A stretch of 64,000 nucleotides of DNA from an uncultured Eubacteriales bacterium. Lineage in GTDB: Bacteria > Bacillota > Clostridia > Oscillospirales > CAG-272. A program made the translations under genes and the position numbers. The notes beneath the pieces were generated by a model, which made no database searches, was not told where the DNA came from, and worked only from the letters and a program-made list of their open reading frames with translations. Below are positions 4,718 to 47,673 of this stretch, in pieces. Within the stretch, counting starts at the first letter, position 1, and each line of letters starts with the position of its first letter. The DNA is taken from NCBI GenBank assembly GCA_934446365.1, contig CAKSDZ010000002.1:122653-186652 (forward strand), read 5' to 3'.

Positions 4718-4913
4718 CGTTTCATTTTCCTTATATAATCGGTATTTCCGTATTATTGTACCAAACAACCGCATATTTGTCCATAGAAAATGAAAAAAAT
4801 ATTTGAAAAGTTCTCTTTTGGAGCGCATCCGAACATCGGATTCATTGACTTTATTGCCCGAATATGTTATATTGATAGATAAATTCGGCAGCAGCCGGTA
4901 CAGGGAGGCAGCA

Positions 4914-5576
4914 ATGGCAGAAGCAAAAACCTATTTCGCGGAATTTCCGGCGCTTTCGGACAGCGCCGCCATCGAGAATAGAATCCATGAAGTGTCAGAA
5001 GCGCGCCGGGAGCGCATCCGGACGGCCAAAAGACCGGAAACCCAAGCATCTCTGCTCGCGGCCGGCCTGATTCTCAACGCGGTCATGAAAAAGGAATTTG
5101 GGCTGTCGGAGTTCAAAATCGAAATCGGAGAGCACGGAAAGCCGTATCTTGCCGACCACAGGGAGATTCATTTCAACCTTTCCCACAGCGCGGCGGTCGT
5201 CGCATGCACCGTCTCCGATGTGGAATGCGGCGTCGATGTCGAAAAAATCGAGGCTTCGCACAACATGATGGGCATCGCCAACCGGTTCTTTTCCCTGCCC
5301 GAATATAACGCGATGCTGCTGTCGCAGAATCCGAAAGAGGCATTCTGCCGGCTGTGGACGCTGCGGGAAAGCTATGTCAAAATGCGCGGAATGGGCTTCG
5401 ATATCGGACTTTCCACGCTCCGCTGCGATTTCCACCGCGGCGTATGCTCGATTTACCAAGACGGAATTTTGCAGACCGACGCATTTTTCCATGAGTTCCG
5501 CAACATTTACGGCTATCGCGGCGCAGTATGCACCGCGAAGGAAGCCACACATGAAATCAGCCGGATTGAAATTTGA
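4914..5576 (+). CDS. 4'-phosphopantetheinyl transferase (Sfp type)
   Basis: GKPYL...FNLSHS...GVDVEKI...WTLRESYVKMRGMG motifs. ATG at 4914 follows GGGAGG. Confidence 0.8.
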   Translation: MAEAKTYFAEFPALSDSAAIENRIHEVSEARRERIRTAKRPETQASLLAAGLILNAVMKKEFGLSEFKIEIGEHGKPYLADHREIHFNLSHSAAVVACTVSDVECGVDVEKIEASHNMMGIANRFFSLPEYNAMLLSQNPKEAFCRLWTLRESYVKMRGMGFDIGLSTLRCDFHRGVCSIYQDGILQTDAFFHEFRNIYGYRGAVCTAKEATHEISRIEI

Positions 5577-5643
5577 ACGTCAAGCCGCGAAAAGCGCCGG
5601 ATCCCCGCACGTCTTTCCTTTTACAGAAGCATAAACCAACAGC

Positions 5644-5686
5644 AAAACGGAAGCTCCTTATTTTGATAAGGCGCTTCCGTTTTTTC
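5644..5686 (+). terminator. Intrinsic terminator after the PPTase gene
   Basis: ACGGAAGC...GCTTCCGT stem with inner CCTTA/TAAGG, followed by TTTTTT. Confidence 0.75.
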
Positions 5687-5689
5687 GGG

Positions 5690-5720
5690 AAAAAGAACGT
5701 CCGCCGCAAGCGGCGGATGC
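5690..5720 (-). terminator. Probable terminator of the ECF S-component gene
   Basis: TCCGCCGC-tt-GCGGCGGA hairpin followed on the minus strand by CGTTCTTTTT. Confidence 0.55.
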
Positions 5721-5726
5721 GTGTTT

Positions 5727-6302
5727 TTAATCTCTCAGATATTTCTTCTGCAGCATATCCGCCACCTTGGCCAGCAAAGCGACGATAATCATGGAGGCGA
5801 TGCCGCTGACAAGCATGGACAGTGCGCATCCGATCGACGCGACAATGACCACCTCGCGTTCATATTTCAGCACATATATCTTGAACAGATAACGGATAAC
5901 AGGCTCCGTCAGCACGTTGACCACCGTGGAAAGCGCCGCGACTGCGGCATATCTCCCGATAAGCCCTCCTGCGGAGATTTCCGTTTTTCTGCGAAACAGA
6001 AGTCCCGCAAAAAATCCCGCGGCCATGCCGAGAATCGCTTTTGCAATCAGCGTCGGAAAAGCGGAGGTGAAATATCCCGTAAGTAAATCGGACAGCATAA
6101 GGCCGACGCCGCCCACCGCCGCGCCGTAAACGGGTCCCAGCATGATTCCCGCAAGAATGACAAAAGCGTGACCGACATATATTTTTCCCGTACTATCGCC
6201 GATCGGGATTTCGAGCCGCAGATAGTCAAAGCAAATCAGCGCAAGCGCGGCAAGCATCGCGGCAATCACAAGTCGGCGCAGATAAAGTTTTCTTTTGTTC
6301 AC
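5727..6302 (-). CDS. ECF-transporter S component-like membrane protein (substrate unknown)
   Basis: 191 aa with about six hydrophobic helices; composition and size are typical of ECF S subunits. GTG start behind GGGAGGAG. Confidence 0.55.
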   Translation of the reverse strand: MNKRKLYLRRLVIAAMLAALALICFDYLRLEIPIGDSTGKIYVGHAFVILAGIMLGPVYGAAVGGVGLMLSDLLTGYFTSAFPTLIAKAILGMAAGFFAGLLFRRKTEISAGGLIGRYAAVAALSTVVNVLTEPVIRYLFKIYVLKYEREVVIVASIGCALSMLVSGIASMIIVALLAKVADMLQKKYLRD

Positions 6303-6379
6303 AGTAAGCTCCTCCCGGGCGGCTGTCAGAGCACGCTGCCGCCCGCACTTGATTTTTAGGATGATATGGAGTATACTGC

Positions 6380-6453: not shown

Positions 6454-7869
6454 ATGCTCACTTATATCTTGGAAAAAAAGAAAGGCGAGGCGCTTTATCG
6501 CTCGCTGTATCAGAAAATAAAGGAGGATATCGTCTCCGGCAGGCTCCGCTCCGGCGAAAAGCTGCCCTCAAAGCGAGCAATGGCGGAGCATCTCGGCGTC
6601 AGCTGCATCACGGTCGAAAACGCATACGAACAGCTCATTGCCGAAGGATATCTCCGTCCCGCGCAAAGAAAAGGATATTTTGTCGAGGAAATCCTGCCGT
6701 ATCCGCATCCGGCGGCAAAGCCGGTGCGGCATCTGCCGGAGGGCTGCGAAAAGCCGTCGGAAAGCTCCGATGTTCCGGTCGAGCTGGACCTTGCGGACAC
6801 CTCGGCAGACCCCGCCCGCTTCCCTTTCTCCATATGGATCAAGCTTTTGCGGCGGGTAACGCTCGACTGCCAAAAGGCGCTTTTGCGTCCGGTTCCGTAC
6901 AACGGGATTCCGGAGCTGCGGGAGGTCATCGCGGAGGATATCCGCCGCTCCCGCGGCATCGAAGCCTCGCCGGAACAAATCGTGCTGGGCGCCGGCACGG
7001 AATCCCTCTACAATTTATTGCTTCTCTTTTTCGGAAAGGAGAAGCGGTACGCGATCGAGAACCCCGGTTATCCGAAAATCCGAAAAATCTATCGGGCGGC
7101 AGGCGCGGATATCCGCGGAATTCCGCTCGACGATTCCGGCGTGAGCTTGGAAGCGCTGAACGAATCGGATGCCGATATCCTGCATATCTCGCCTTCCCAT
7201 CATTTTCCGACCGGAATCGTCATGCCCGCAAAACGGCGGCATGAGCTTTACGGCTGGGCGATGGAAAAGAAAGAGCGCTATATCATAGAGGACGATTATG
7301 ATTCCGAATTCGGATATTATGCGAAGCCCATTCCCGCGATACGAAGCATCGACCGCTCGGGGAAAATTCTCTATATGAATACCTTCACCAAAACGCTCGC
7401 GCCGTCCCTCCGTATCAGCTATATGGTGCTGCCGGAGGAAATCGCGAAAGCCTTTCGGGAAAAGCTCGGCTTCTTTTCCTGTCCGGTGCCGAGCTTTGAA
7501 CAATATACCCTCGCTTCTTTTATCGCGGAGGGCTATTTCGACCGACACATCAGCCGCATGCGCAAATATTACAGAGAGGTTCGCAGGCTTTTGACGGACG
7601 GACTTGGCGGCGCCGTTTCCTCAGGGAAAATTCAAATACGCGGAAAGGATTCCGGTCTGCATTTTCTCATGACGGTCGATACCACGCGTTCCGACGCGGA
7701 GCTATGCCGCCTCTTTCGAGGGCATGGCGTCAAAATCCGGGCGCTTTCGGAATTTATGTTCGAGAAAAAAAGCGATACGCACACGCTTCTTGTCAACGAT
7801 TCGTCTCTTTCGCCGGAGAGTGCCGCGGGAGCGGCGAAAAAAATTCTCGAATGCCTTTCCGACTGCTGA
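6454..7869 (+). CDS. MocR/PdxR-type regulator (GntR HTH fused to an aminotransferase-like PLP domain)
   Basis: N-terminus: YRSLYQKIKEDIVSGRLRSGEKLPSKRAMAEHLGVSCITVENAYEQLIAEGYL. This is followed by a ~350-aa fold-type I aminotransferase-like domain. Confidence 0.9.
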   Translation: MLTYILEKKKGEALYRSLYQKIKEDIVSGRLRSGEKLPSKRAMAEHLGVSCITVENAYEQLIAEGYLRPAQRKGYFVEEILPYPHPAAKPVRHLPEGCEKPSESSDVPVELDLADTSADPARFPFSIWIKLLRRVTLDCQKALLRPVPYNGIPELREVIAEDIRRSRGIEASPEQIVLGAGTESLYNLLLLFFGKEKRYAIENPGYPKIRKIYRAAGADIRGIPLDDSGVSLEALNESDADILHISPSHHFPTGIVMPAKRRHELYGWAMEKKERYIIEDDYDSEFGYYAKPIPAIRSIDRSGKILYMNTFTKTLAPSLRISYMVLPEEIAKAFREKLGFFSCPVPSFEQYTLASFIAEGYFDRHISRMRKYYREVRRLLTDGLGGAVSSGKIQIRGKDSGLHFLMTVDTTRSDAELCRLFRGHGVKIRALSEFMFEKKSDTHTLLVNDSSLSPESAAGAAKKILECLSDC

Positions 7870-7962
7870 ACATGCCCTTGCACGGAATACCGTCCGCCAA
7901 AAGGCGGAACCGCTACGGAAAAGCGTCTTGCACAAAAACAAAATTCCCCGATCAATCGCGTG

Positions 7963-8073
7963 TTCCATAGGGATTTTTCAGACGACGTAAAAGACTAACA
8001 AAATTTTCTTTGTTAGTCTTTATTTTTGTTTTGCAAATCACACACCTTTGCTCGCAAAGCATAGTGTGCTACC
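7963..8073 (+). repeat. ~110-bp conserved module, copy 1 (homologous to 45812-45925 in inverse orientation)
   Basis: By-eye alignment: TTCCATAGGGATTT, a 13-bp-stem hairpin (7990-8021), TTTTTGTTTTGCAAATCACACAC, hairpin CTTTGC/GCAAAG, then CATAGTGTGCTAC. Confidence 0.7.
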
Positions 8074-8108
8074 CTTTGAACAAGTAGTTGTTAAAACTAC
8101 ATTTATCT

Positions 8109-9152
8109 TTAATCAGTATAGGTGAAAAGCTCCCAAGGGATATCGACTTGTTTTTTCTCGCTTAAAATTTCATCAATATGTAATAATAATGGAAAATCTT
8201 CCTTTTTAAGAGTACCCTTTTTAATATTGATTTTTATTGCCTTTGCAACTCTTACGGCAACCACTAAAGATTCAAGCGTAACGCCTTTTAATTCTGCTTT
8301 TGCTTGGTCAATATCAAGGCCTTTTCCAAGCAAAACGCCGACAAGTCTTGTTCTGCCACCGTAAACGGTAACGTATAAATCGCCAACTCCTACGCAAAGG
8401 TTATTCAACGAGAGTGCATTTTGGAATTGTAAAAGTTTATACATTTCTTTTGTCGCTTGACCAAAAACAGCCGCTTGAGAGTTAAAATGTAAGGTATTGT
8501 CTTTGAAATTCTTTTGGTTTAATCCAATCGTAAGTGCTATACCTAACGCATATCCGTTTTTAAGAGCAACAGCGCTTTCAATTCCTACGACGTCGGTCGT
8601 GATACTTATATGGTAATAATCCGTTTGCATTATTTCTTTTAAGTATTGCAATACTTTTATATCATCGCCACAAAAAGTAACTTCGGTTTGGTCGTGCACC
8701 ACCAATTCATAGCTTGTACAAGGCCCGCCGATTGCATTAAGCGAAAGAGATTTATTGATGGATTTTAGTTTCTCTTTCCAAAAGCTTGGATAAGTGAATA
8801 ATTTCCCGTCGGGTGTATCTATAAGCCCTTTTGTAACGGTAAGTACTACTGCGGTTTCGGGGATAACGGGCAAAACCTTATCTGCAAACCAATCTACACC
8901 AAAGCTGCTAACGCCGCCAATAACGACGTTTGCGCCAACCAACGCCTTTTCTAACTCTTCAATTTGAAAAAATTCTATTCCCTTTGGGAATGGGATATCA
9001 AATTTAGGATGTTTATTATTTTGTAAACATTCATCGATTATTTCTCTATCCAAGTGCGTCCCAACGATTCTTACTGTGTGTCCGTTTTCTCTTGCGGGAA
9101 ATGCAAGTGCCGACCCCATCATACCCGCGCCAACTATCGTTACAATTGCCAT
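8109..9152 (-). CDS. NAD(P)-dependent glycerol-3-phosphate dehydrogenase-family protein, in an AT-rich island
   Basis: MAIVTIVGAGMMGSALAF Rossmann start and GpsA-like length. Codon usage and GC are clearly unlike the flanking DNA. Confidence 0.7.
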   Translation of the reverse strand: MAIVTIVGAGMMGSALAFPARENGHTVRIVGTHLDREIIDECLQNNKHPKFDIPFPKGIEFFQIEELEKALVGANVVIGGVSSFGVDWFADKVLPVIPETAVVLTVTKGLIDTPDGKLFTYPSFWKEKLKSINKSLSLNAIGGPCTSYELVVHDQTEVTFCGDDIKVLQYLKEIMQTDYYHISITTDVVGIESAVALKNGYALGIALTIGLNQKNFKDNTLHFNSQAAVFGQATKEMYKLLQFQNALSLNNLCVGVGDLYVTVYGGRTRLVGVLLGKGLDIDQAKAELKGVTLESLVVAVRVAKAIKINIKKGTLKKEDFPLLLHIDEILSEKKQVDIPWELFTYTD

Positions 9153-9295
9153 AAATACTCCTTATAATAAAATGAAAAATTTGAAAATTGTGATATAATC
9201 ATACTATATATTGAACACGAAATCAAGCAGTTTTTTTGTGGCGCAGTTTTTGAAAGATTTTCAAACTTTGCCAAAAGGAGAGTTTATGACTTTAT

Positions 9296-9449
9296 ATGAA
9301 TGACAAAATAAAATTTTAATTTTTTACAGCAACGGCAATTTGCAACGATTAAGAAATTGAGTAAAATCGTGTGAACGAGCGAATCTTCCATTCATCGCGA
9401 CTTAAAGGTGTTAGAAAGCAAAGGCTTCGTTAAAGGAGAGTTTTTATAA
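9296..9449 (+). pseudogene. Degenerate N-terminal fragment of a DeoR/GlpR-type HTH regulator
   Basis: Manual translation gives ...QQRQFATIKKLSKIV*TSESSIHRDLKVLESKGFVKGEFL*. This is a DeoR HTH pattern interrupted by stops and ending at the island edge. Confidence 0.45.
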
Positions 9450-9463
9450 AAGCCGATCCGGCG

Positions 9464-9784
9464 TTATAAAACCGTAAGCAATACCGCCGACAGAAGCAAA
9501 AGGCAAGAGGCGGTGCCAAGCATGCCGACCGCCATGCCGCGCTTTCCGGTGCGTCCAAAGAGCCGGCGCGCCACAAAGGAAACGGCCGCGCAAAGTGCAT
9601 CCCATATCACCGCAAACGGAGCCAGCAGCACAAGCAAAATCGAAAGCATGAGCTTCTTTCTCCGACTCTCTTTCCGGAGCGGCGCGCCGCTTTTCCGGTA
9701 TGGTGACGCAGCGCGCACCGGACATTCGACCGAATAGGAATATACCTTGCACCCTTCTATTATTCTATAATCACAGTTTCCCAT
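9464..9784 (-). CDS. Hypothetical protein: Cys-rich N-terminus plus two TM helices (alternative start 9649)
   Basis: GAGGTG RBS before the ATG at 9784. The C-terminal MLSILLVLLAPFAVIWDALCAAV...GMLGTASCLLLLSAVLLTVL is hydrophobic. A consensus promoter lies upstream. Confidence 0.4.
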   Translation of the reverse strand: MGNCDYRIIEGCKVYSYSVECPVRAASPYRKSGAPLRKESRRKKLMLSILLVLLAPFAVIWDALCAAVSFVARRLFGRTGKRGMAVGMLGTASCLLLLSAVLLTVL

Positions 9785-9971: not shown

Positions 9972-10691
9972 ATGGAATGGCTCGAAAACATCAAAAAGCT
10001 CAAAAAAGAAAAAGGACTGACCAATGAATCTCTGTCCGAAAAATCGGGGATATCCGTCGGGACGCTCAATAAGCTTCTCAGCGGCGCAACGACGGACCCC
10101 AAGCTCTCCACCCTGCGCCCGCTTGCGGATGCGCTGGAGGTGTCCCTCGACGAGCTGCTCGCTATCCGAAAGGAAAACACACCGGGACTGCCTGCCGCGC
10201 TCGCCGCAAAATACGGAGAGCTCGACGACTCCGGGCGGGAAACGGTAGAGTATATCATCAATAAGGAACATGAGCGCGTCATGAAAGACCGCGCGGCGAA
10301 GCCCTATTCACTGGAAACGCCGGCCGTCAGACGTTTGAAGCTCTACAACATCGCAGTTTCCGCCGGTACCGGTTCCTATCTCGCGGACGGCGATTACAGC
10401 GAAATCTCCGTCTATGCCAACGCTAAAACGGACGCCGCGGATTTCGCGGTGAGGGTATACGGCGACAGCATGTCGCCGCGGTATGAAAGCGGCGATATCC
10501 TGCTCGTTTCCAAAACCGACGAAATCGACAGAGGCGAGCTCGGCATCTTCTCGCTCAACGGAGAAAGCTACTTCAAAAAATATGGCGGCGACAGGCTCAT
10601 TTCCCTCAATCCGGCATACCGCGACATGCTCTTAAACAGCCATGACGAAATCGTCTGCTTCGGCAAGGTAATCGGACGGCTGAAAAAATAA
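9972..10691 (+). CDS. XRE-family HTH regulator with a C-terminal S24 (LexA/CI-like) peptidase domain
   Basis: LTNESLSEKSGISVGTLNKLLSG HTH, the YGDSMSP catalytic Ser motif, and a downstream FKKYGG Lys. Confidence 0.85.
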   Translation: MEWLENIKKLKKEKGLTNESLSEKSGISVGTLNKLLSGATTDPKLSTLRPLADALEVSLDELLAIRKENTPGLPAALAAKYGELDDSGRETVEYIINKEHERVMKDRAAKPYSLETPAVRRLKLYNIAVSAGTGSYLADGDYSEISVYANAKTDAADFAVRVYGDSMSPRYESGDILLVSKTDEIDRGELGIFSLNGESYFKKYGGDRLISLNPAYRDMLLNSHDEIVCFGKVIGRLKK

Positions 10692-15065: not shown

Positions 15066-15098
15066 CGCACCGGAAACTCCGGTGCGGTTTTCTTTTTT
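15066..15098 (+). terminator. groEL intrinsic terminator
   Basis: CGCACCGGA-aac-TCCGGTGCG followed by TTTTCTTTTTT. Confidence 0.9.
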
Positions 15099-15890
15099 CT
15101 CCTTTGAAAAGGAGAAGATACGTGCTTTTCTCACTGAGGAGAAAAGCACCAAAAGACTCACCGAGACGCTGTCTCGGACTCTCAATCTTCTGCTGGGAAG
15201 CGCATACCTACGGCTCCCAACAGTTGTTTGCTCTCGCTTCGCTCGGCAAGCCAACATTCGCCGTGCGGGAAGTTTGTGCGACTGGGAAGCTCGCGTCCGC
15301 AGGCGCAAGGCTTTCGGAGCGCACTCGCTGCCCGTTCGGCGTGTTCCGCCGTGGCTTGCGTACCTCTGTGGTACGCAAACACGTGCCGGGAGCCGACGGG
15401 ATATACTCTCGGATTGCACCAACGGTCAAGCCGAAGGCTTGCAGTTCTTTTGATGCTTTTCTTTCTGTAAAGAAAAGCATGCGTTCTCTCCTTTGCAAAG
15501 GAGAAGATATGTGCTTTTCTCACTGAGGAGAAAAGCACCAAAAGACTCACCGAGACGCTGTCTCGGACTCTCATTCTTCTGCTGGGAAGCGCATACCCAC
15601 GGCTCGAAAGGTGTTGCAGTGCTCGCACAGGCCACCACTCCCCGTGCGGCAAGCAACTGCGACTGGGAAGTTTGCGCCCGCAGGCGCAAGGCTTTCGGAG
15701 CGCACTCGCTGCCCGTTCGGCGTGTTCCGCCGTGGCTTGCGTACCCTCTGTGGTACGCAAACTGGGAGCCGACGGGATATACTCTCGGATTGCACCAACG
15801 GTCAAGCCGGAGGCTTGCGGCTTCTTTTCGTCCTTTTCTTGTCCGCACAAGAAAAGAACATGTTTCTCTCCTTTGAAAAAGGAGAAAGAA
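15097..15890. repeat. Tandem array of a ~390-bp hairpin-dense repeat (unit A 15097-15484, unit B 15485-15863, terminal partial hairpin 15864-15890)
   Basis: The units align along their length. The same family recurs at 33545-34345. Reading frames are not conserved between units. Confidence 0.9.
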
Positions 15891-15895
15891 AAACA

Positions 15896-15934
15896 GCAGG
15901 AACACACTTGCAGTGCTCCTGCCGTTTTATTTTT
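15896..15934 (-). terminator. Bidirectional terminator (rpsR side)
   Basis: GCAGGA..CACTtgcAGTG..TCCTGC hairpin with T runs on both strands. Confidence 0.65.
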
Positions 15935-33518: not shown

Positions 33519-33546
33519 TTCCGCCATATAGGCGGATTTTTCTTTT
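33519..33546 (+). terminator. pdxK intrinsic terminator
   Basis: TCCGCC-atata-GGCGGA followed by TTTTTCTTTT. Confidence 0.85.
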
Positions 33547-34345
33547 CTCCTTTCCAAAGGAGAAAGATATGTGCTTTTCTCACTGAGGAGAAAAGCACCA
33601 AAAGACTCACCGAGACGATGTCTCGGACTCTCATCGTGCTACTGGGAAACACATACACACGGCTCCCAACAGTTGTTTGCTCTCGCTTCGCTCGGCAAGC
33701 CAACATTCGCCGTGCGGAGAGCATCTGCCACTGGAAACCCGCGCCCGCAGGCGTAAGGCTACCGGATTGCACTCGCTGCCCGTTCGGCGTGTTCCGCCGT
33801 GGATTGCACGAGTTTACCGAGTGCAAACACGTGTCGGGAGCCGACGGAATACATTTTCGGCCCGCACTAACGGTCAAGCCGCAGGCTTGCAGTTCTTTTG
33901 ATGCTTTTCTTTCTGCAAAGAAAAGCATGCGGTTTCTCCTTTCCAAAGGAGAAGATGTGTGCTTTTCTCACTGAGGAGAAAAGCACCAAAAGACTCATCG
34001 AGACGCTGTCTCGGACTCTCATCGTGCTGCTGGGAAGCGCATACACACGGCTCCCAACAGTTGTTTGCTCTCGCTTCGCTCGGCAAGCCAACATTCGCCG
34101 TGCAGAAATTTTGTGCCACTGGAAAGCTCGCGCCCGCAGGCGCAAGGCTGCCGGATTGCACTCGCTGCCCGTTCGGCGTGTTCCGCCGTGGATTGCACGA
34201 GTTTACCGAGTGCAAACACGTGTCGGGAGCCGACGGAATACATTTTCGGCCCGCACTAACGGCCAAGCCGAAGGCTTGCAGTTCTTTTGATGCTTTTCTT
34301 TCTGCAAAGAAAAGCATGCGGTTTCTCCTTTCCAAAGGAAAAAGA
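33545..34345. repeat. Second tandem array of the ~390-bp repeat family (unit C 33545-33933, unit D 33934-34322, terminal partial hairpin 34323-34345)
   Basis: Collinear with 15097-15890, in the same orientation and with the same three-hairpin junctions. Confidence 0.9.
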
Positions 34346-45168: not shown

Positions 45169-45339
45169 CAAAAAAGAGAGCGTCTCCGCAGTTCCCATAG
45201 GGATTTAAGTTTAATAACGGCAAAACTTGCCTTTTCAAAAGTCGAGTTTTCTTTTACGCACGCAAAACTGCTTTAATATAATTTGTTTTTATGGTAAAAT
45301 AAACCCACCGATAAAAGGGAATTTATAGAATAGTAGGAT

Positions 45340-45780
45340 ATGAAGAAAATGAGTAATACCTTAAGAATCATTAAGAATGTGGAAAATATAAAAGAACATA
45401 ACAATGTTGCGTTAGAGTGTGATTTAATATGTGAATGCGGAAATAAATACTTTAAAATATATCATTCCGGAAAACAAACCAAAGGTATATTTGCCCCTTA
45501 TTTAGTTAAAAGCAATCATCAAATAGTTATTGAAGGAAAATGCACATGTTGTGAAAAGAGTATTGTAATTTTTGATAGCAGCCTTGACGGAACAAAAAAA
45601 TGCGAATTAAGTAAAACTCCTAAACAATTATTTAATATTTTAAACGATATTTACGCCTATAAAATTCATTTAATGTATAACTACTATGAAAACAATTTCA
45701 GAACAAACTTGTTTGAGGACTGTTTCATAGAAATATCCAATAGTAAATTCAAAAAGCCACGTCGCTTGTATGAAGGATGA
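45340..45780 (+). CDS. Hypothetical Cys-rich (CxxxCxC ... CxCC) 146-aa protein; cargo of the cassette
   Basis: MKKMSNTLRIIKNV...CDLICECGNKYFKIYHSGKQ...GKCTCCEKSIVIFD. AT-rich codon usage unlike the host genes. GGA-rich RBS (aatagtaggatATG). Confidence 0.55.
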   Translation: MKKMSNTLRIIKNVENIKEHNNVALECDLICECGNKYFKIYHSGKQTKGIFAPYLVKSNHQIVIEGKCTCCEKSIVIFDSSLDGTKKCELSKTPKQLFNILNDIYAYKIHLMYNYYENNFRTNLFEDCFIEISNSKFKKPRRLYEG

Positions 45781-45811
45781 TAAGAATATATTAGAAAAAC
45801 ACTTTCAAAAG

Positions 45812-45925
45812 TGTAGCACACTATACTTAACAGAGTTAAGTCGTGTGTTTTTGCAAAGCAAAAAGGAAAAGACTAACGAAAATTTTCGTTAGTCTTTTAT
45901 ACTATCTAAAAAATCCCTATGGGAA
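45812..45925 (-). repeat. ~110-bp conserved module, copy 2 (inverse orientation relative to 7963-8073)
   Basis: Contains the 32-nt perfect palindrome AAAAGACTAACGAAAATTTTCGTTAGTCTTTT (45867-45898), hairpin CTTAAC/GTTAAG, GTAGCACACTAT, and the terminal AAATCCCTATGGGAA. Confidence 0.7.
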
Positions 45926-45951
45926 ACGACCCTTCCACGCTCTCTTTTTTG

Positions 45952-47673
45952 TTAAATCTGGTATTTCGCAAGCTCGTTTTTCACAATTTCCGCAATCTTT
46001 TCCGCAGCTTCCGCAATCGGAAATTCGCCCTTCCACGATTTGTCGCGCAGGGAAACCTCGACAACACCGCGCTCGCAGGTTTTCGGCGACACGACGGCGC
46101 GCACCGGAATGCCGAACAAATCCGCATCCGCGAACATCGCGCCGGGACGGATATTGCGGTCGTCGTAAAGCACCTCGATTCCCGCCGACTGCAAGGCTTC
46201 ATACAGACGGTCCGCCGCCGCGCTCACGACTGCGTCGTCACAGCGGAGATTGCAGACCTCCACCTGCCACGGGGCGATGGACATCGGCCAAATGGGGCCG
46301 TAATCGTCGTGGCTTTCCTGGCAGATAGAAGCGCAAAGCCTTCCGATGCCGATGCCGTAGCAGCCCATAATCGGATTTTTCGCCTCTCCGTCCGCATCAA
46401 GATAGGTCATGCCCATCGATTTCGTATATTTGGTTCCGAGCTGGAAGATGTTCCCGACCTCGATTCCCTTTTGAATGGTAATCACCGGTTTTCCGCAGGA
46501 CGGGCATACCGCGCCCGCGTAAATCTTCGCAACATCGACATAGTTGACGTCCCCGATATCGCGCGCGATGTTGAAGCCCGTATAGTGATAATCCGTCTCG
46601 TTCGCGCCGCAGACGAGATTGCAGGCTCCGGCAAGAGAACGGTCCCAAACGACCGTAACCCCGTCGGGAAGTCCGAGCGCACCGATAAAGCCCGCGACGA
46701 TGCCGCTTTCCTCCGTGATGACCGCCGGATGGAATTCACCCCCGAGGAAATTGCGCAGCTTGGTCTCATTGACGTCGAGATCGCCGCGGATAAAGACGAT
46801 GACGTAGGAATCGTCCGCATTTTTCTGATAAACGACCGCCTTGCAAAGGCGTTTTTCGTCCGCATCGAGGAATTTTGCCAAATCATCGATGGTTTTTGCA
46901 CCGGGCGTATGGATTTTGGTGAGCGGCGCGTCCTCTGCCTGTCCGTTTTTCACGATGCATTCCGCCGCCTCCATATTCGCCTTATAGCCGCACTCCGGAC
47001 AAATGGCGAGCGTATCCTCTCCGATTTCGGAAAGCAGCATGAATTCATGCGACACACTGCCGCCCATCATGCCGGAATCCGATTTGACCGCGATGACGTT
47101 TTTTGCGCCGGCACGGCGGAAAATGCGCTCATACGCCTCGTAGCAGCGCTCATAATAGGCTTCCAGATCCTCCTGCGACGTGTGGAACGAATAGGCGTCC
47201 TTCATGGTAAATTCACGCACGCGAATCAGTCCCCCGCGTGCACGCGGTTCGTCGCGGAATTTCGTCTGAATCTGATAAATCATAAACGGAAAATCCGCAT
47301 AGGATTTCGCCGTATCGCGCGCGAGGTGGACGGCCGCCTCCTCGTGCGTCATGCCGAGCACCATGTTGTTGCCGCCTCTGTCCTTGAAGCGCGCCATCTC
47401 GCTGCCGATGCTCGTATACCGGCCTGACTGCTCCCACAGCGTCGCCGGCATCACCACGGGAAACAGCACCTCCTCGCCGTCGATGCGGTCCATCTCCTCA
47501 CGGATGATTTTTTCGATTTTGGACGTGATCCGTTTTGCCGGCGTAAACAGAGAATAAATCCCGTTTCCCACGTATTTCATATAGCCACCGCGCATCATGA
47601 GCGCATGACTTGCAATCACACAGTCTTTCGGCGCTTCCTTGAAGCGTTCGCCGAGCATTTTGGCAACTTTCAT
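45952..47673 (-). CDS. proS: Prolyl-tRNA synthetase
   Basis: HALMMRGGYMKYVGNGIYSLFTPAKRI...FRDEPRARGGLIRVREFTMKDAYSFH. Confidence 0.97.
   Translation of the reverse strand: MKVAKMLGERFKEAPKDCVIASHALMMRGGYMKYVGNGIYSLFTPAKRITSKIEKIIREEMDRIDGEEVLFPVVMPATLWEQSGRYTSIGSEMARFKDRGGNNMVLGMTHEEAAVHLARDTAKSYADFPFMIYQIQTKFRDEPRARGGLIRVREFTMKDAYSFHTSQEDLEAYYERCYEAYERIFRRAGAKNVIAVKSDSGMMGGSVSHEFMLLSEIGEDTLAICPECGYKANMEAAECIVKNGQAEDAPLTKIHTPGAKTIDDLAKFLDADEKRLCKAVVYQKNADDSYVIVFIRGDLDVNETKLRNFLGGEFHPAVITEESGIVAGFIGALGLPDGVTVVWDRSLAGACNLVCGANETDYHYTGFNIARDIGDVNYVDVAKIYAGAVCPSCGKPVITIQKGIEVGNIFQLGTKYTKSMGMTYLDADGEAKNPIMGCYGIGIGRLCASICQESHDDYGPIWPMSIAPWQVEVCNLRCDDAVVSAAADRLYEALQSAGIEVLYDDRNIRPGAMFADADLFGIPVRAVVSPKTCERGVVEVSLRDKSWKGEFPIAEAAEKIAEIVKNELAKYQI

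Follow-up and report, generated by a model that had tools for sequence, protein, structure and literature searches.

A structured repeat in an uncultured gut Clostridia genome as the probable right end of a family of mobile gene cassettes in terminator loops

A structured module of about 110 bp occurs twice in a 64,000-nucleotide stretch of DNA from an uncultured Eubacteriales bacterium (contig CAKSDZ010000002.1, positions 122,653 to 186,652), which we call the window. Each copy lies in an AT-rich island, copy 1 at 7963-8073 and copy 2 at 45812-45925. We conclude, with a probability of roughly 80%, that it forms the right end (RE) in a family of mobile gene cassettes that are non-autonomous and target the loops of transcription terminators. 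The closest known type is the mobile insertion cassette (MIC), comparable to a miniature inverted-repeat transposable element (MITE) with a passenger gene.

The evidence that the cassettes move comes from near-identical elements in unrelated surroundings. Two loci from different species, L050 and L062, have a 782-bp element as their sole common sequence, with 98.7% identity. Similarly, a 1,030-bp element (98.8-99.2% identity) is all that loci L087, L156 and L072 share. On the left the similarity begins at exactly TA|ACCGCTC with unrelated flanks, and on the right flank-specific sequence follows immediately past ...GCACCTA (…GACGCACCTA).

The clue to a second end was provided by profile searches, in which partial inverted copies of the 3' half of the module lay a few hundred bases upstream of several copies. 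A left-end profile shows that this left end (LE) is conserved upstream of the RE in about 45 loci, and LE and RE are mutually inverted-repeat over about 90 nt, with a hairpin in each. In the sense of the cargo gene, a complete element consists of a 2-bp duplication, the left inverted repeat (IR-L), a terminator hairpin, a promoter and leader, the cargo, the RE and the same 2-bp duplication. Elements measure 0.7-1.5 kb, up to 3.7 kb, have ends of about 150 and 190 nt, and carry their own predicted promoter and usually one gene. The terminal inverted repeat (TIR) is 22 nt long at both ends of 32 complete elements and is made of 15 nt of variable consensus plus GGGATTT; the IR-L consensus is AGGGCGTCACTCATAGGGATTT or ACCGCTCTTCTCATAGGGATTT. 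On the downstream side of the module, conservation stops 17 nt past AAATCCC and is followed by locus-specific sequence and a T-run. A preliminary description of the module, made from the window's sequence, had suggested that the terminal TTCC(C)ATAGGGATTT could be a recognition site for a transposase or recombinase, and the finding that this motif is the inner part of the 22-bp repeat at both ends of complete elements supports the suggestion. That account covered half the element, since it missed the left end (45185-45339 in the window, with inverted repeat, hairpin and promoter) and likewise the host terminator arms at 45169-45183 and 45937-45951.

Within the LE, the inverted repeat (…AGGGCGTCACTCATAGGGATTT) is followed by a spacer of A and T, a hairpin and its T-run, a promoter predicted by its consensus match (TTGCAT-N17-TGGTACAAT), the leader (AACTCACCGATAAATAAGAATTTG) and a ribosome-binding site. 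The RE consists of a 5' extension (in about two thirds of copies), hairpin 2 inside a CACAC/GTGTG stem, an A/U-rich conserved block, hairpin 1 and the right inverted repeat (IR-R).

The position of the elements in their hosts was determined by aligning 39 left and 94 right ends anchored on GGGATTT. Outward from this anchor lie the conserved 15 nt of the inverted repeat, a T/A-rich dinucleotide, about 10 variable, G+C-rich host bases and an A-run (80-90% A). The dinucleotides outside IR-L and IR-R form the same direct repeat in 28 of the 32 complete elements (TA in 18, TT in 8 and AA in 2; permutation p <= 1e-5). Ten pairs of non-palindromic dinucleotides are direct and none are inverted, and therefore the dinucleotide is a target duplication or a crossover core and not part of the inverted repeat. 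An IS630/Tc1-mariner MITE, in which the duplication is strictly TA, is excluded because TT/TT and AA/AA occur in 8 and 2 of the 32 elements. The host flanks are mutually reverse-complementary, matching at 9.2 of 13 nt compared with 6.2 in mismatched-pair controls, and 69% of elements have at least 9 matches vs 5% of controls. Additionally, the A-run and the T-run stand at a constant distance of about 10 nt. Removal of the element together with one copy of the dinucleotide restores ordinary bidirectional terminators, for example AAAAAAGCCGT-TTAT-ACGGCTTTTT in L152. The elements thus lie at a W-W dinucleotide (W, A or T) in the centre of a host bidirectional intrinsic terminator with the order A-run, about 10 nt, WW, about 10 nt, T-run. 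Between convergent genes we found 18 of 29 elements, with a stop codon usually 0-40 nt away.

The module itself is a genuine repeat with a conserved fold. When 7963-8073 (plus strand) is aligned with the reverse complement of 45812-45925, 92 of the 118 columns are identical (78%), compared with 50 ± 2.5% and a maximum of 57% for composition-matched shuffles. A profile of related copies matches the window at these two places only (E = 3e-26 and 5e-37), and folding against shuffles gave z from -4.5 to -6.9 on either strand. The compensatory differences that had been noted in two hairpins were confirmed at their positions and, as described below, covariation holds in the family. Hairpin 1 has the arms AAAGACTAACAAA/TTTGTTAGTCTTT in copy 1 (7990-8021) and AAAAGACTAACGAAAA/TTTTCGTTAGTCTTTT in copy 2 (45867-45898), and the single A>G difference is compensated by T>C. 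Hairpin 2 is CTTTGC..GCAAAG in copy 1 (8046-8059) and CTTAAC...GTTAAG in copy 2 (45826-45840); three positions per arm differ and pairing is retained. The blocks between the hairpins had been taken to be single-stranded, which is incorrect for CACAC (45817-45821), as this block pairs with GTGTG (45843-45847) in an outer stem enclosing hairpin 2.

Further copies, whose search had been recommended, exist among genomes and metagenomes alike. A scan of one genome per GTDB species with the pattern GTAGCACACTAT-N10-30-TTTGCAAARCAAA identified at least 118 loci from about a hundred metagenome-assembled genomes (MAGs) of human and ruminant gut Clostridia, and the MAG labels among the matches listed are mostly Christensenellaceae, Ca. 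Scatosoma or Stercoripulliclostridium. With another part of the module as its anchor, CTTTTATA-N4-12-AAAAAATCCCTA, a scan of metagenomes identified at least 52 true copies (52 of 119 loci among the matches listed). In an alignment of 109 non-identical family copies, hairpin 1 is paired in 99.4% of cells with double-sided changes at 5 of 10 pairs (GGATAGC, GAGTAGC and GACTAAC(G) with their partners), and the hairpin 2 stem is paired in 95.6% of cells with double-sided changes at 2 of 5 pairs. The outer CACAC/GTGTG stem is paired in 97% of cells, with no double-sided changes in this sample. None of 500 shuffles reached the observed covariation, and slid controls collapse. The blocks GTAGCACACTAT and TTTGCAAARCAAA are invariant in the first sample because the search pattern imposes them. 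In the differently anchored second sample the blocks vary, with the variants GTAGCAAACTAT, GTAGCACATTAT, and ATAGCTCAC paired with GTGAG, and a compensated change of the outer stem, CTCAC with GTGAG, is present. A possible third hairpin in the outer 17 nt of the inverted repeat was rejected, being only 56% paired.

Of the two islands, island 2 (about 45184-45934) holds a complete element that is slightly decayed and is fixed in the species. The left-end profile matches 45180-45347 (E about 1e-32), which is the left edge of this island, and the segments 45169-45183 and 45937-45951 are the two halves of one terminator between a 398-aa gene and proS. The parts of island 2 are as follows.

45169..45183, plus strand: left arm of the host terminator, A-run and stem CAAAAAAGAGAGCGT, directly 3' of the 398-aa gene's stop codon; inverted repeat with 45937-45954 at 18/18 positions
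45185..45206, plus strand: IR-L, with a diverged outer part and TTCCCATAGGGATTT; 15/15 inverted repeat with 45911-45925, and a match to the family end profile
45219..45242, plus strand: left-end hairpin GGCAAAACTTGCC then TTTTCAAAAGT, with a homologous hairpin in L050, L152 and L117; probably terminator-like for transcription arriving from the left host gene
45291..45300, plus strand: predicted promoter -10 with TG extension ATGGTAAAAT, counterpart of TTGCAT-N17-TGGTACAAT, by consensus match only
45306..45324, plus strand: conserved leader CACCGATAAAAGGGAATTT, which in other elements pairs with the 5' extension of the RE; this extension is missing in copy 2
45340..45780, plus strand: cargo gene for a 146-aa Cys-rich protein without a match in Pfam or NCBIfam; every sampled strain has the gene at this site
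45803..45932, plus strand: RE copy 2, by related-copy profile, covariation and folding
45813-45824, within this RE: TTTCAAAAGT and GTAGCACACTAT
45817-45821 with 45843-45847: outer stem
45826-45840: hairpin 2
45848-45866: TTTTTGCAAAGCAAAAAGG
45867-45898: hairpin 1
45911-45932: IR-R
45937..45951, plus strand: right arm of the host terminator, stem and T-run ACGCTCTCTTTTTTG, abutting the stop codon of proS (minus strand)

Island 1 is cargo and RE only.

7933..7953, plus strand: host A-run and stem arm CAAAAACAAAATTCCCCGATC beside copy 1, downstream of a MocR-like gene (6454..7869)
7955..7976, minus strand: IR-R of copy 1; the plus strand reads ATCGCGTGTTCCATAGGGATTT
7977..8078, minus strand: RE core of copy 1, by profile, alignment and folding
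7990-8021, within this RE: hairpin 1
8022-8045: conserved block
8046-8059: hairpin 2
8061-8072, minus strand: GTAGCACACTAT
8109..9152, minus strand: AT-rich cargo gene for a 347-aa protein like NAD-dependent glycerol-3-phosphate dehydrogenase (gpsA-like), in the same arrangement as in the sister-species locus L048

Both islands are present in every sampled strain of the window's species. The AT-rich stretch upstream of the gpsA-like gene (9153-9460) has no left-end homology. Farther on, at 9464-9784 (minus strand), a 106-aa open reading frame (ORF) of normal G+C content with no family match lies between the promoter region of the island 1 cargo and a LexA-like repressor gene (9972..10691).

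Sister species of the window's bacterium illustrate the target of island 2. In L166 and L169 (ProRS 87-91% identical) an intact terminator follows proS; in L169 (4725-4766) it reads AAAAAGGGACGG-CTTA-CCGTCCCTTTTT. In L168, which has a ProRS identical to that of L169, a 1.6-kb cassette (4740-6345) lies in the loop of that terminator, flanked by TT/TT. This cassette belongs to another end family, whose ends here are GGGGTGCC.../...GGCCCCCC; besides a hairpin and promoter of its own, it has a gene for a 368-aa XRE/RstR-like protein. Likewise, an ORF-less element of about 355 bp with imperfect inverted repeats (GAGTGATGTCCTTAGCGGAGAA / TTCTCCCTTAAGGATAACACGC) lies in L114 (7554-7915) inside the AAAATTTT loop of hairpin 1 of an RE. 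Because of the L168 and L114 cases, we regard terminator loops as recurrent targets in this clade for more than one end type. The same hairpin-1 loop is split at about 4850 in L065 by another sequence that runs off the locus.

Each end of a complete element has its own hairpin. The preliminary description had proposed that hairpin 1 and its T run terminate the cargo genes. Hairpin 1 is terminator-like, with the G+C-containing stem-loop and T-run by which intrinsic terminators are recognized, but the terminator scan calls it in both copies on the strand of the converging host gene (plus strand for the MocR-like gene, minus strand for proS), with stems of 13-14 bp followed by ATTTTTGTTT or CCTTTTTGCT. 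The cargo strand, where the stem is followed by TCTTTT only, fails the scan. Hairpin 1 is best read as a bidirectional terminator that would replace the host terminator split by the insertion. According to the mechanism that we propose, a transposase acting in trans would make 2-bp staggered cuts at the terminator centre. Each end would carry its own hairpin and T-run because insertion splits the host terminator, and these would halt transcription from the flanking host genes. Hairpin 1 would be the RE copy of this insulator, and it would also end the cargo transcript. The pairs are almost exclusively Watson-Crick, with no strand asymmetry. A hairpin that serves as RNA in both directions cannot tolerate G-U, which is A-C on the other strand, and therefore near-pure Watson-Crick covariation fits this role.

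The same structural data bear on a second explanation, that the module is primarily a functional RNA, either a 3'-untranslated region (UTR) element or a small RNA that would extend for about 90 nt, from AAAGUGUAGCAC as far as the terminator of hairpin 1, and that its link with mobile DNA is secondary. The strong covarying structure would be expected of such an RNA, as would the A/U-rich single-stranded stretch ahead of a terminator-like hairpin, the 60 nt specific to the RE (hairpin 2 and the adjacent conserved blocks) that have no counterpart in the LE, and the complementarity of the RE extension to the mRNA leader. Furthermore, the variant ATTTGTCG vs CGATAAAT stays paired only as G-U, on the cargo strand. 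In contrast, the nearly pure Watson-Crick pairing without strand asymmetry speaks against an RNA, the palindrome of hairpin 1 continues across its loop (AAAATTTT), the module never occurs apart from the inverted repeat and the target duplication, and no convincing promoter precedes the core in all copies. Rfam 15 gave zero matches at the gathering threshold for the window and three full-length elements, and a permissive scan of the module gave sub-threshold noise only (best 23 bits vs a 60-bit cut-off). We consider a primarily RNA-based function very unlikely, and an RNA role would supplement rather than displace the mobile-element interpretation. Assigning the strand from G-U vs A-C mismatches was uninformative (7 vs 3 in hairpin 1). 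A sigma-70 promoter inside the RE was also rejected on either strand, since the best pairs of hexamers either have a spacing of 23 nt or do not hold in some of the subtypes; as for the TTTGTGG-AAAAAT motif of the RE, it behaves as a covarying hairpin and not as a promoter.

Within the mobile cassette, the RE-specific 60 nt may still function as the structured 3' UTR that had been suggested for the module; for hairpin 2 and the adjacent blocks we favour a role as a protein-binding site in sub-terminal position or as a stabiliser of the 3' UTR. The 5' extension of the RE is seen as homology reaching 50-65 nt farther upstream in about two thirds of loci, where it begins just past the ORF stop codon (CAAATTCCAATTTATCGAGTTG...). 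It is complementary to the leader over about 19 bp, interrupted by a 2×2 internal loop that is conserved, and the two always occur together (both in 22 elements, neither in 11); both window copies lack the extension. We read this complementarity as an inner inverted repeat or a 5'-3' clamp of the cargo mRNA. It sometimes runs into variable cargo-adjacent bases (GACG/CGTC in L066, GATG/CATC in L061), as if the cargo lay in the loop of an inner hairpin, although the numbers are small.

The cargo differs from element to element. The 101 ORFs upstream of the RE fall into 64 clusters, in agreement with the proposal that the module marks a cassette family. The cargo is usually one gene and sometimes two to five, and the sequence upstream of the RE has a GC fraction of 0.24-0.49, mostly 0.29-0.41, irrespective of host GC. 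Cargo families include kinase/zeta-like proteins, GrpB, hexapeptide acetyltransferase, DUF4097, TfoX_N, S-adenosylmethionine methyltransferases, GIY-YIG, glycosyltransferase and cytidine deaminase. Larger members occupy 1600-4200 in L142 and 2900-6750 in L148, the latter with the same cargo in L090, L095, L101 and L144. One larger member encodes a C5-cytosine-methyltransferase-like protein and a putative endonuclease, identified by sequence motifs, and we read this pair as a probable restriction-modification system. Another, of about 3.7 kb, has five genes, including those for DnaB-like and WYL-like proteins by motif reading. The gene content of the larger members suggests a defence-type cargo.

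A diverse gene followed by a conserved structured site is also what would be seen if the module were an integron attC site, or an end of the IS200/IS605 type, either a palindrome-associated transposable element (PATE) or a TnpB guide-RNA scaffold. Like integron cassettes, the elements described here are mostly single small diverse accessory genes ahead of a conserved structured site, with occasional tandems. The attC cores are RYYYAAC/GTTRRRY within an imperfect palindrome, and the arms of hairpin 1 in the window, GACTAAC/GTTAGTC, are one mismatch away from them. Most of the family, however, has GGATAGC/GCTATCC or GAGTAGC/GCTACTC in hairpin 1, without an AAC/GTT core. The cassettes also differ from those of integrons in having their own predicted promoter, two inverted ends and a target duplication, and in being dispersed to terminators genome-wide instead of stacked at attI, with no attC cores and no integrase nearby. 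The ends of IS200/IS605 elements, with sub-terminal hairpins on the same strand and tnpA or tnpB adjacent, are not inverted repeats and leave no duplication, whereas a second, inverted end and a duplication of 2 bp are features of the complete elements described here. Integrase-adjacent arrays were not found, IntI, TnpA and TnpB were not among the neighbours, no cargo was TnpB-like, and Rfam gave no match. Both identities were rejected on stem sequences (compared by core sequence), inverted ends, duplication and dispersal, and we hold them to be highly improbable.

The footprint of the cassettes points to a transposase. The elements have inverted repeats at both ends, a short direct duplication, near-identical copies at non-homologous sites and a passenger gene without transposase, which together characterize TIR transposons. 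Moreover, their duplication of 2 bp in the middle of a target that is nearly a palindrome is of the IS30 type, and by this analogy the mobilising system is perhaps most like the IS30 family, a tentative assignment to which we give somewhat less than even odds. To our knowledge, there is no evident resemblance between the inverted repeat of IS30 and those of the cassettes. IS30 of E. coli duplicates the 2 bp in the middle of hot spots that are almost palindromes, moves by copy-out-paste-in via a junction of its inverted repeats and inserts next to its own inverted repeats (PMC9333248). The cassettes are alike in the 2-bp duplication at the palindrome centre, in inverted repeats within the 20-30 bp range and, in L046 only, perhaps in an abutted IR-2bp-IR junction. 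That single case (1762-1808) consists of two tandem cassettes whose repeats abut as IR(15)-TA-IR(15); the interior of the left end is different in the second cassette, which carries at least two genes. The cassettes differ from IS30 in that no IS30-family transposase was found with them, and membership in the family is putative.

The dinucleotide and the L046 junction fit another mechanism as well, in which a recombinase that recognises structure, of the serine type or another, would exchange strands at a core of 2 bp between a circular cassette and terminator palindromes. The joined ends, IR-R + NN + IR-L, would mimic a terminator (A-run/palindrome/T-run), and the system would be integron-like but dispersed, not arrayed. 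The identical dinucleotide at both junctions agrees with such a recombination, as do targets set by shape and not by sequence and a cargo diversity like that of integron cassettes. Joining the ends would also give a target-like palindrome with the central dinucleotide between AAAAAATCCC and GGGATTTTTT, of which the L046 junction is an example. Serine integrases require that both partners share the core dinucleotide and that the half-sites have a specific sequence. The dinucleotide here varies (TA, TT, AA) and the stems have no sequence relationship, no gene for a recombinase recurs among the neighbouring ORFs, and TIRs with a short direct duplication are the classic footprint of a DDE transposase. 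We consider site-specific recombination unlikely.

We compared the cassettes with known systems that combine passenger genes or terminator-like targets. In the MIC concept, inverted repeats of the insertion sequence (IS) type surround a non-transposase gene, as in MIC231 from the Bacillus cereus group and in the MIC with qnrS2 on Aeromonas plasmids (PMC5444012, PMC6199540). The cassettes correspond in that TIRs bracket a passenger gene without an inner transposase (mobilisation in trans being presumed), with a short duplication and unrelated sites. They differ in their long ends, equipped with a predicted promoter and leader and, on either side, with a terminator hairpin; moreover, one end pair carries more than 60 cargo families across many species, the target is an intrinsic terminator loop, and no parent IS was recovered. 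IS1630 of Mycoplasma fermentans targets inverted repeats of variable sequence (PMC9333248; PMC3317919), but it duplicates the whole inverted repeat (16-26 bp), in contrast to the 2 bp of the cassettes. The staphylococcal element IS1272/TnSha1 (IS1182 family) carries sh-fabI and inserts into terminator hairpins without primary-sequence specificity (PMC4923244). Like the cassettes, it is a Firmicutes element with a metabolic gene and sequence-independent targeting of terminator hairpins. TnSha1, however, cuts the stem, deletes part of the hairpin, makes no duplication and includes its own IS1272 copy, whereas the cassettes are inserted centrally, keep the whole stem, have a 2-bp duplication and contain no transposase. 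The Correia elements of Neisseria and the RUP elements of pneumococcus are IS630-type MITEs, small TIR elements flanked by TA, whose promoter and terminator activities rewire neighbouring genes. They have no cargo gene and a strict TA duplication, while the cassettes carry genes and have TT or AA in 10 of 32 cases.

Neither Rfam nor the plasmid and phage collections nor the literature searched yielded a description of this family, which we place with the MIC type. Pattern scans of viral contigs with the module gave chance matches or nothing, and the full RE had no BLAST match in plasmids and phages. No paper with the diagnostic sequence strings was found, and topic searches led to analogies only (MIC, IS30, IS1630, IS1272). 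The preliminary description had left open whether the module is the end of a known IS or MITE family; it is in kind, as a MITE/MIC-type end, but not by name.

Several observations weigh against the interpretation as a mobile cassette or narrow it. No transposase with matching inverted repeats occurs among about 130 cargo ORFs, and no recurrent transposase or recombinase among 1,073 neighbouring ORFs; the enzyme class is therefore assigned from the footprint alone. A search for an autonomous partner IS in about 1.7 Mb of loci, through extra inverted-repeat pairs and left ends without a nearby RE, revealed ordinary cargo only, the methyltransferase-endonuclease pair and the five-gene cluster being among it. 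A shared 2-bp dinucleotide is equally expected from a serine recombinase or from an IS110-type crossover core. The dinucleotides flanking island 2 are TC and TT and hence unequal. Island 1 has no recognisable left end upstream of its cargo and no partner terminator arm elsewhere in the window, and therefore we take its element to be truncated or decayed. An empty and occupied pair of sites was not obtained for this exact family, the L168 vs L169 polymorphism being due to a cassette with different ends. Both collection scans used exact-match patterns, so that the counts are minima and copy numbers, host range and the apparent invariance of blocks are biased. Finally, the promoter, the terminator and the pairing of leader and extension are predictions read from sequence alone.

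If the cassettes are mobile as we conclude, they would be a common, overlooked vehicle of horizontal transfer in a poorly studied, health-associated gut lineage. A single end pair would move dozens of unrelated accessory genes, among them resistance-enzyme-like acetyltransferases, methyltransferases and a putative restriction-modification pair, with copies 99% identical between species. The cost of insertion would be eased by landing in terminator loops downstream of genes and by bringing along replacement terminators, a natural 'safe-harbour plus insulated expression cassette' design. For annotation, the LE and RE profiles and the footprint A-run/N10/WW/N10/T-run let such islands be recognised automatically. 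The transposase could be a useful engineering tool, should it prove true that it reads terminator geometry.

We also considered a system outside the described IS families. Its enzyme would read the shape of the bidirectional terminator (A-tract, about 10 bp, WW, about 10 bp, T-tract), perhaps guided or assisted by the RE module (hairpin 2 in the CACAC/GTGTG stem and the conserved blocks), and the ends would form a universal 'expression vehicle' for swapped genes in a dispersed, integron-like shuffling across gut Christensenellales. We think such a system rather doubtful, although not far-fetched. If true, the vehicle would supply a promoter, a leader, a 5'-3' mRNA clamp and two insulating terminators into which unrelated genes are swapped, and terminators would be safe-harbour sites, with at least one more end family (the L168 type) on the same targets.

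Two other features of the window were noted. A third AT-rich patch at 52-53 kb was rejected as an element, as it holds ordinary genes only; the identity of rpsT and of a promoter there is a reading of the sequence. Two tandem non-coding units of about 389 nt occur at each of two places, 15095-15905 and 33544-34342, four copies in total, and in the segments compared most of them show 83-97% identity. Palindromes of 28 nt (GTGCTTTTCTCACTGAGGAGAAAAGCAC and ATGCTTTTCTTTCTGTAAAGAAAAGCAT) lie in each unit, the units have no Rfam match, and the first pair of units occupies the gap between groEL and rpsR.

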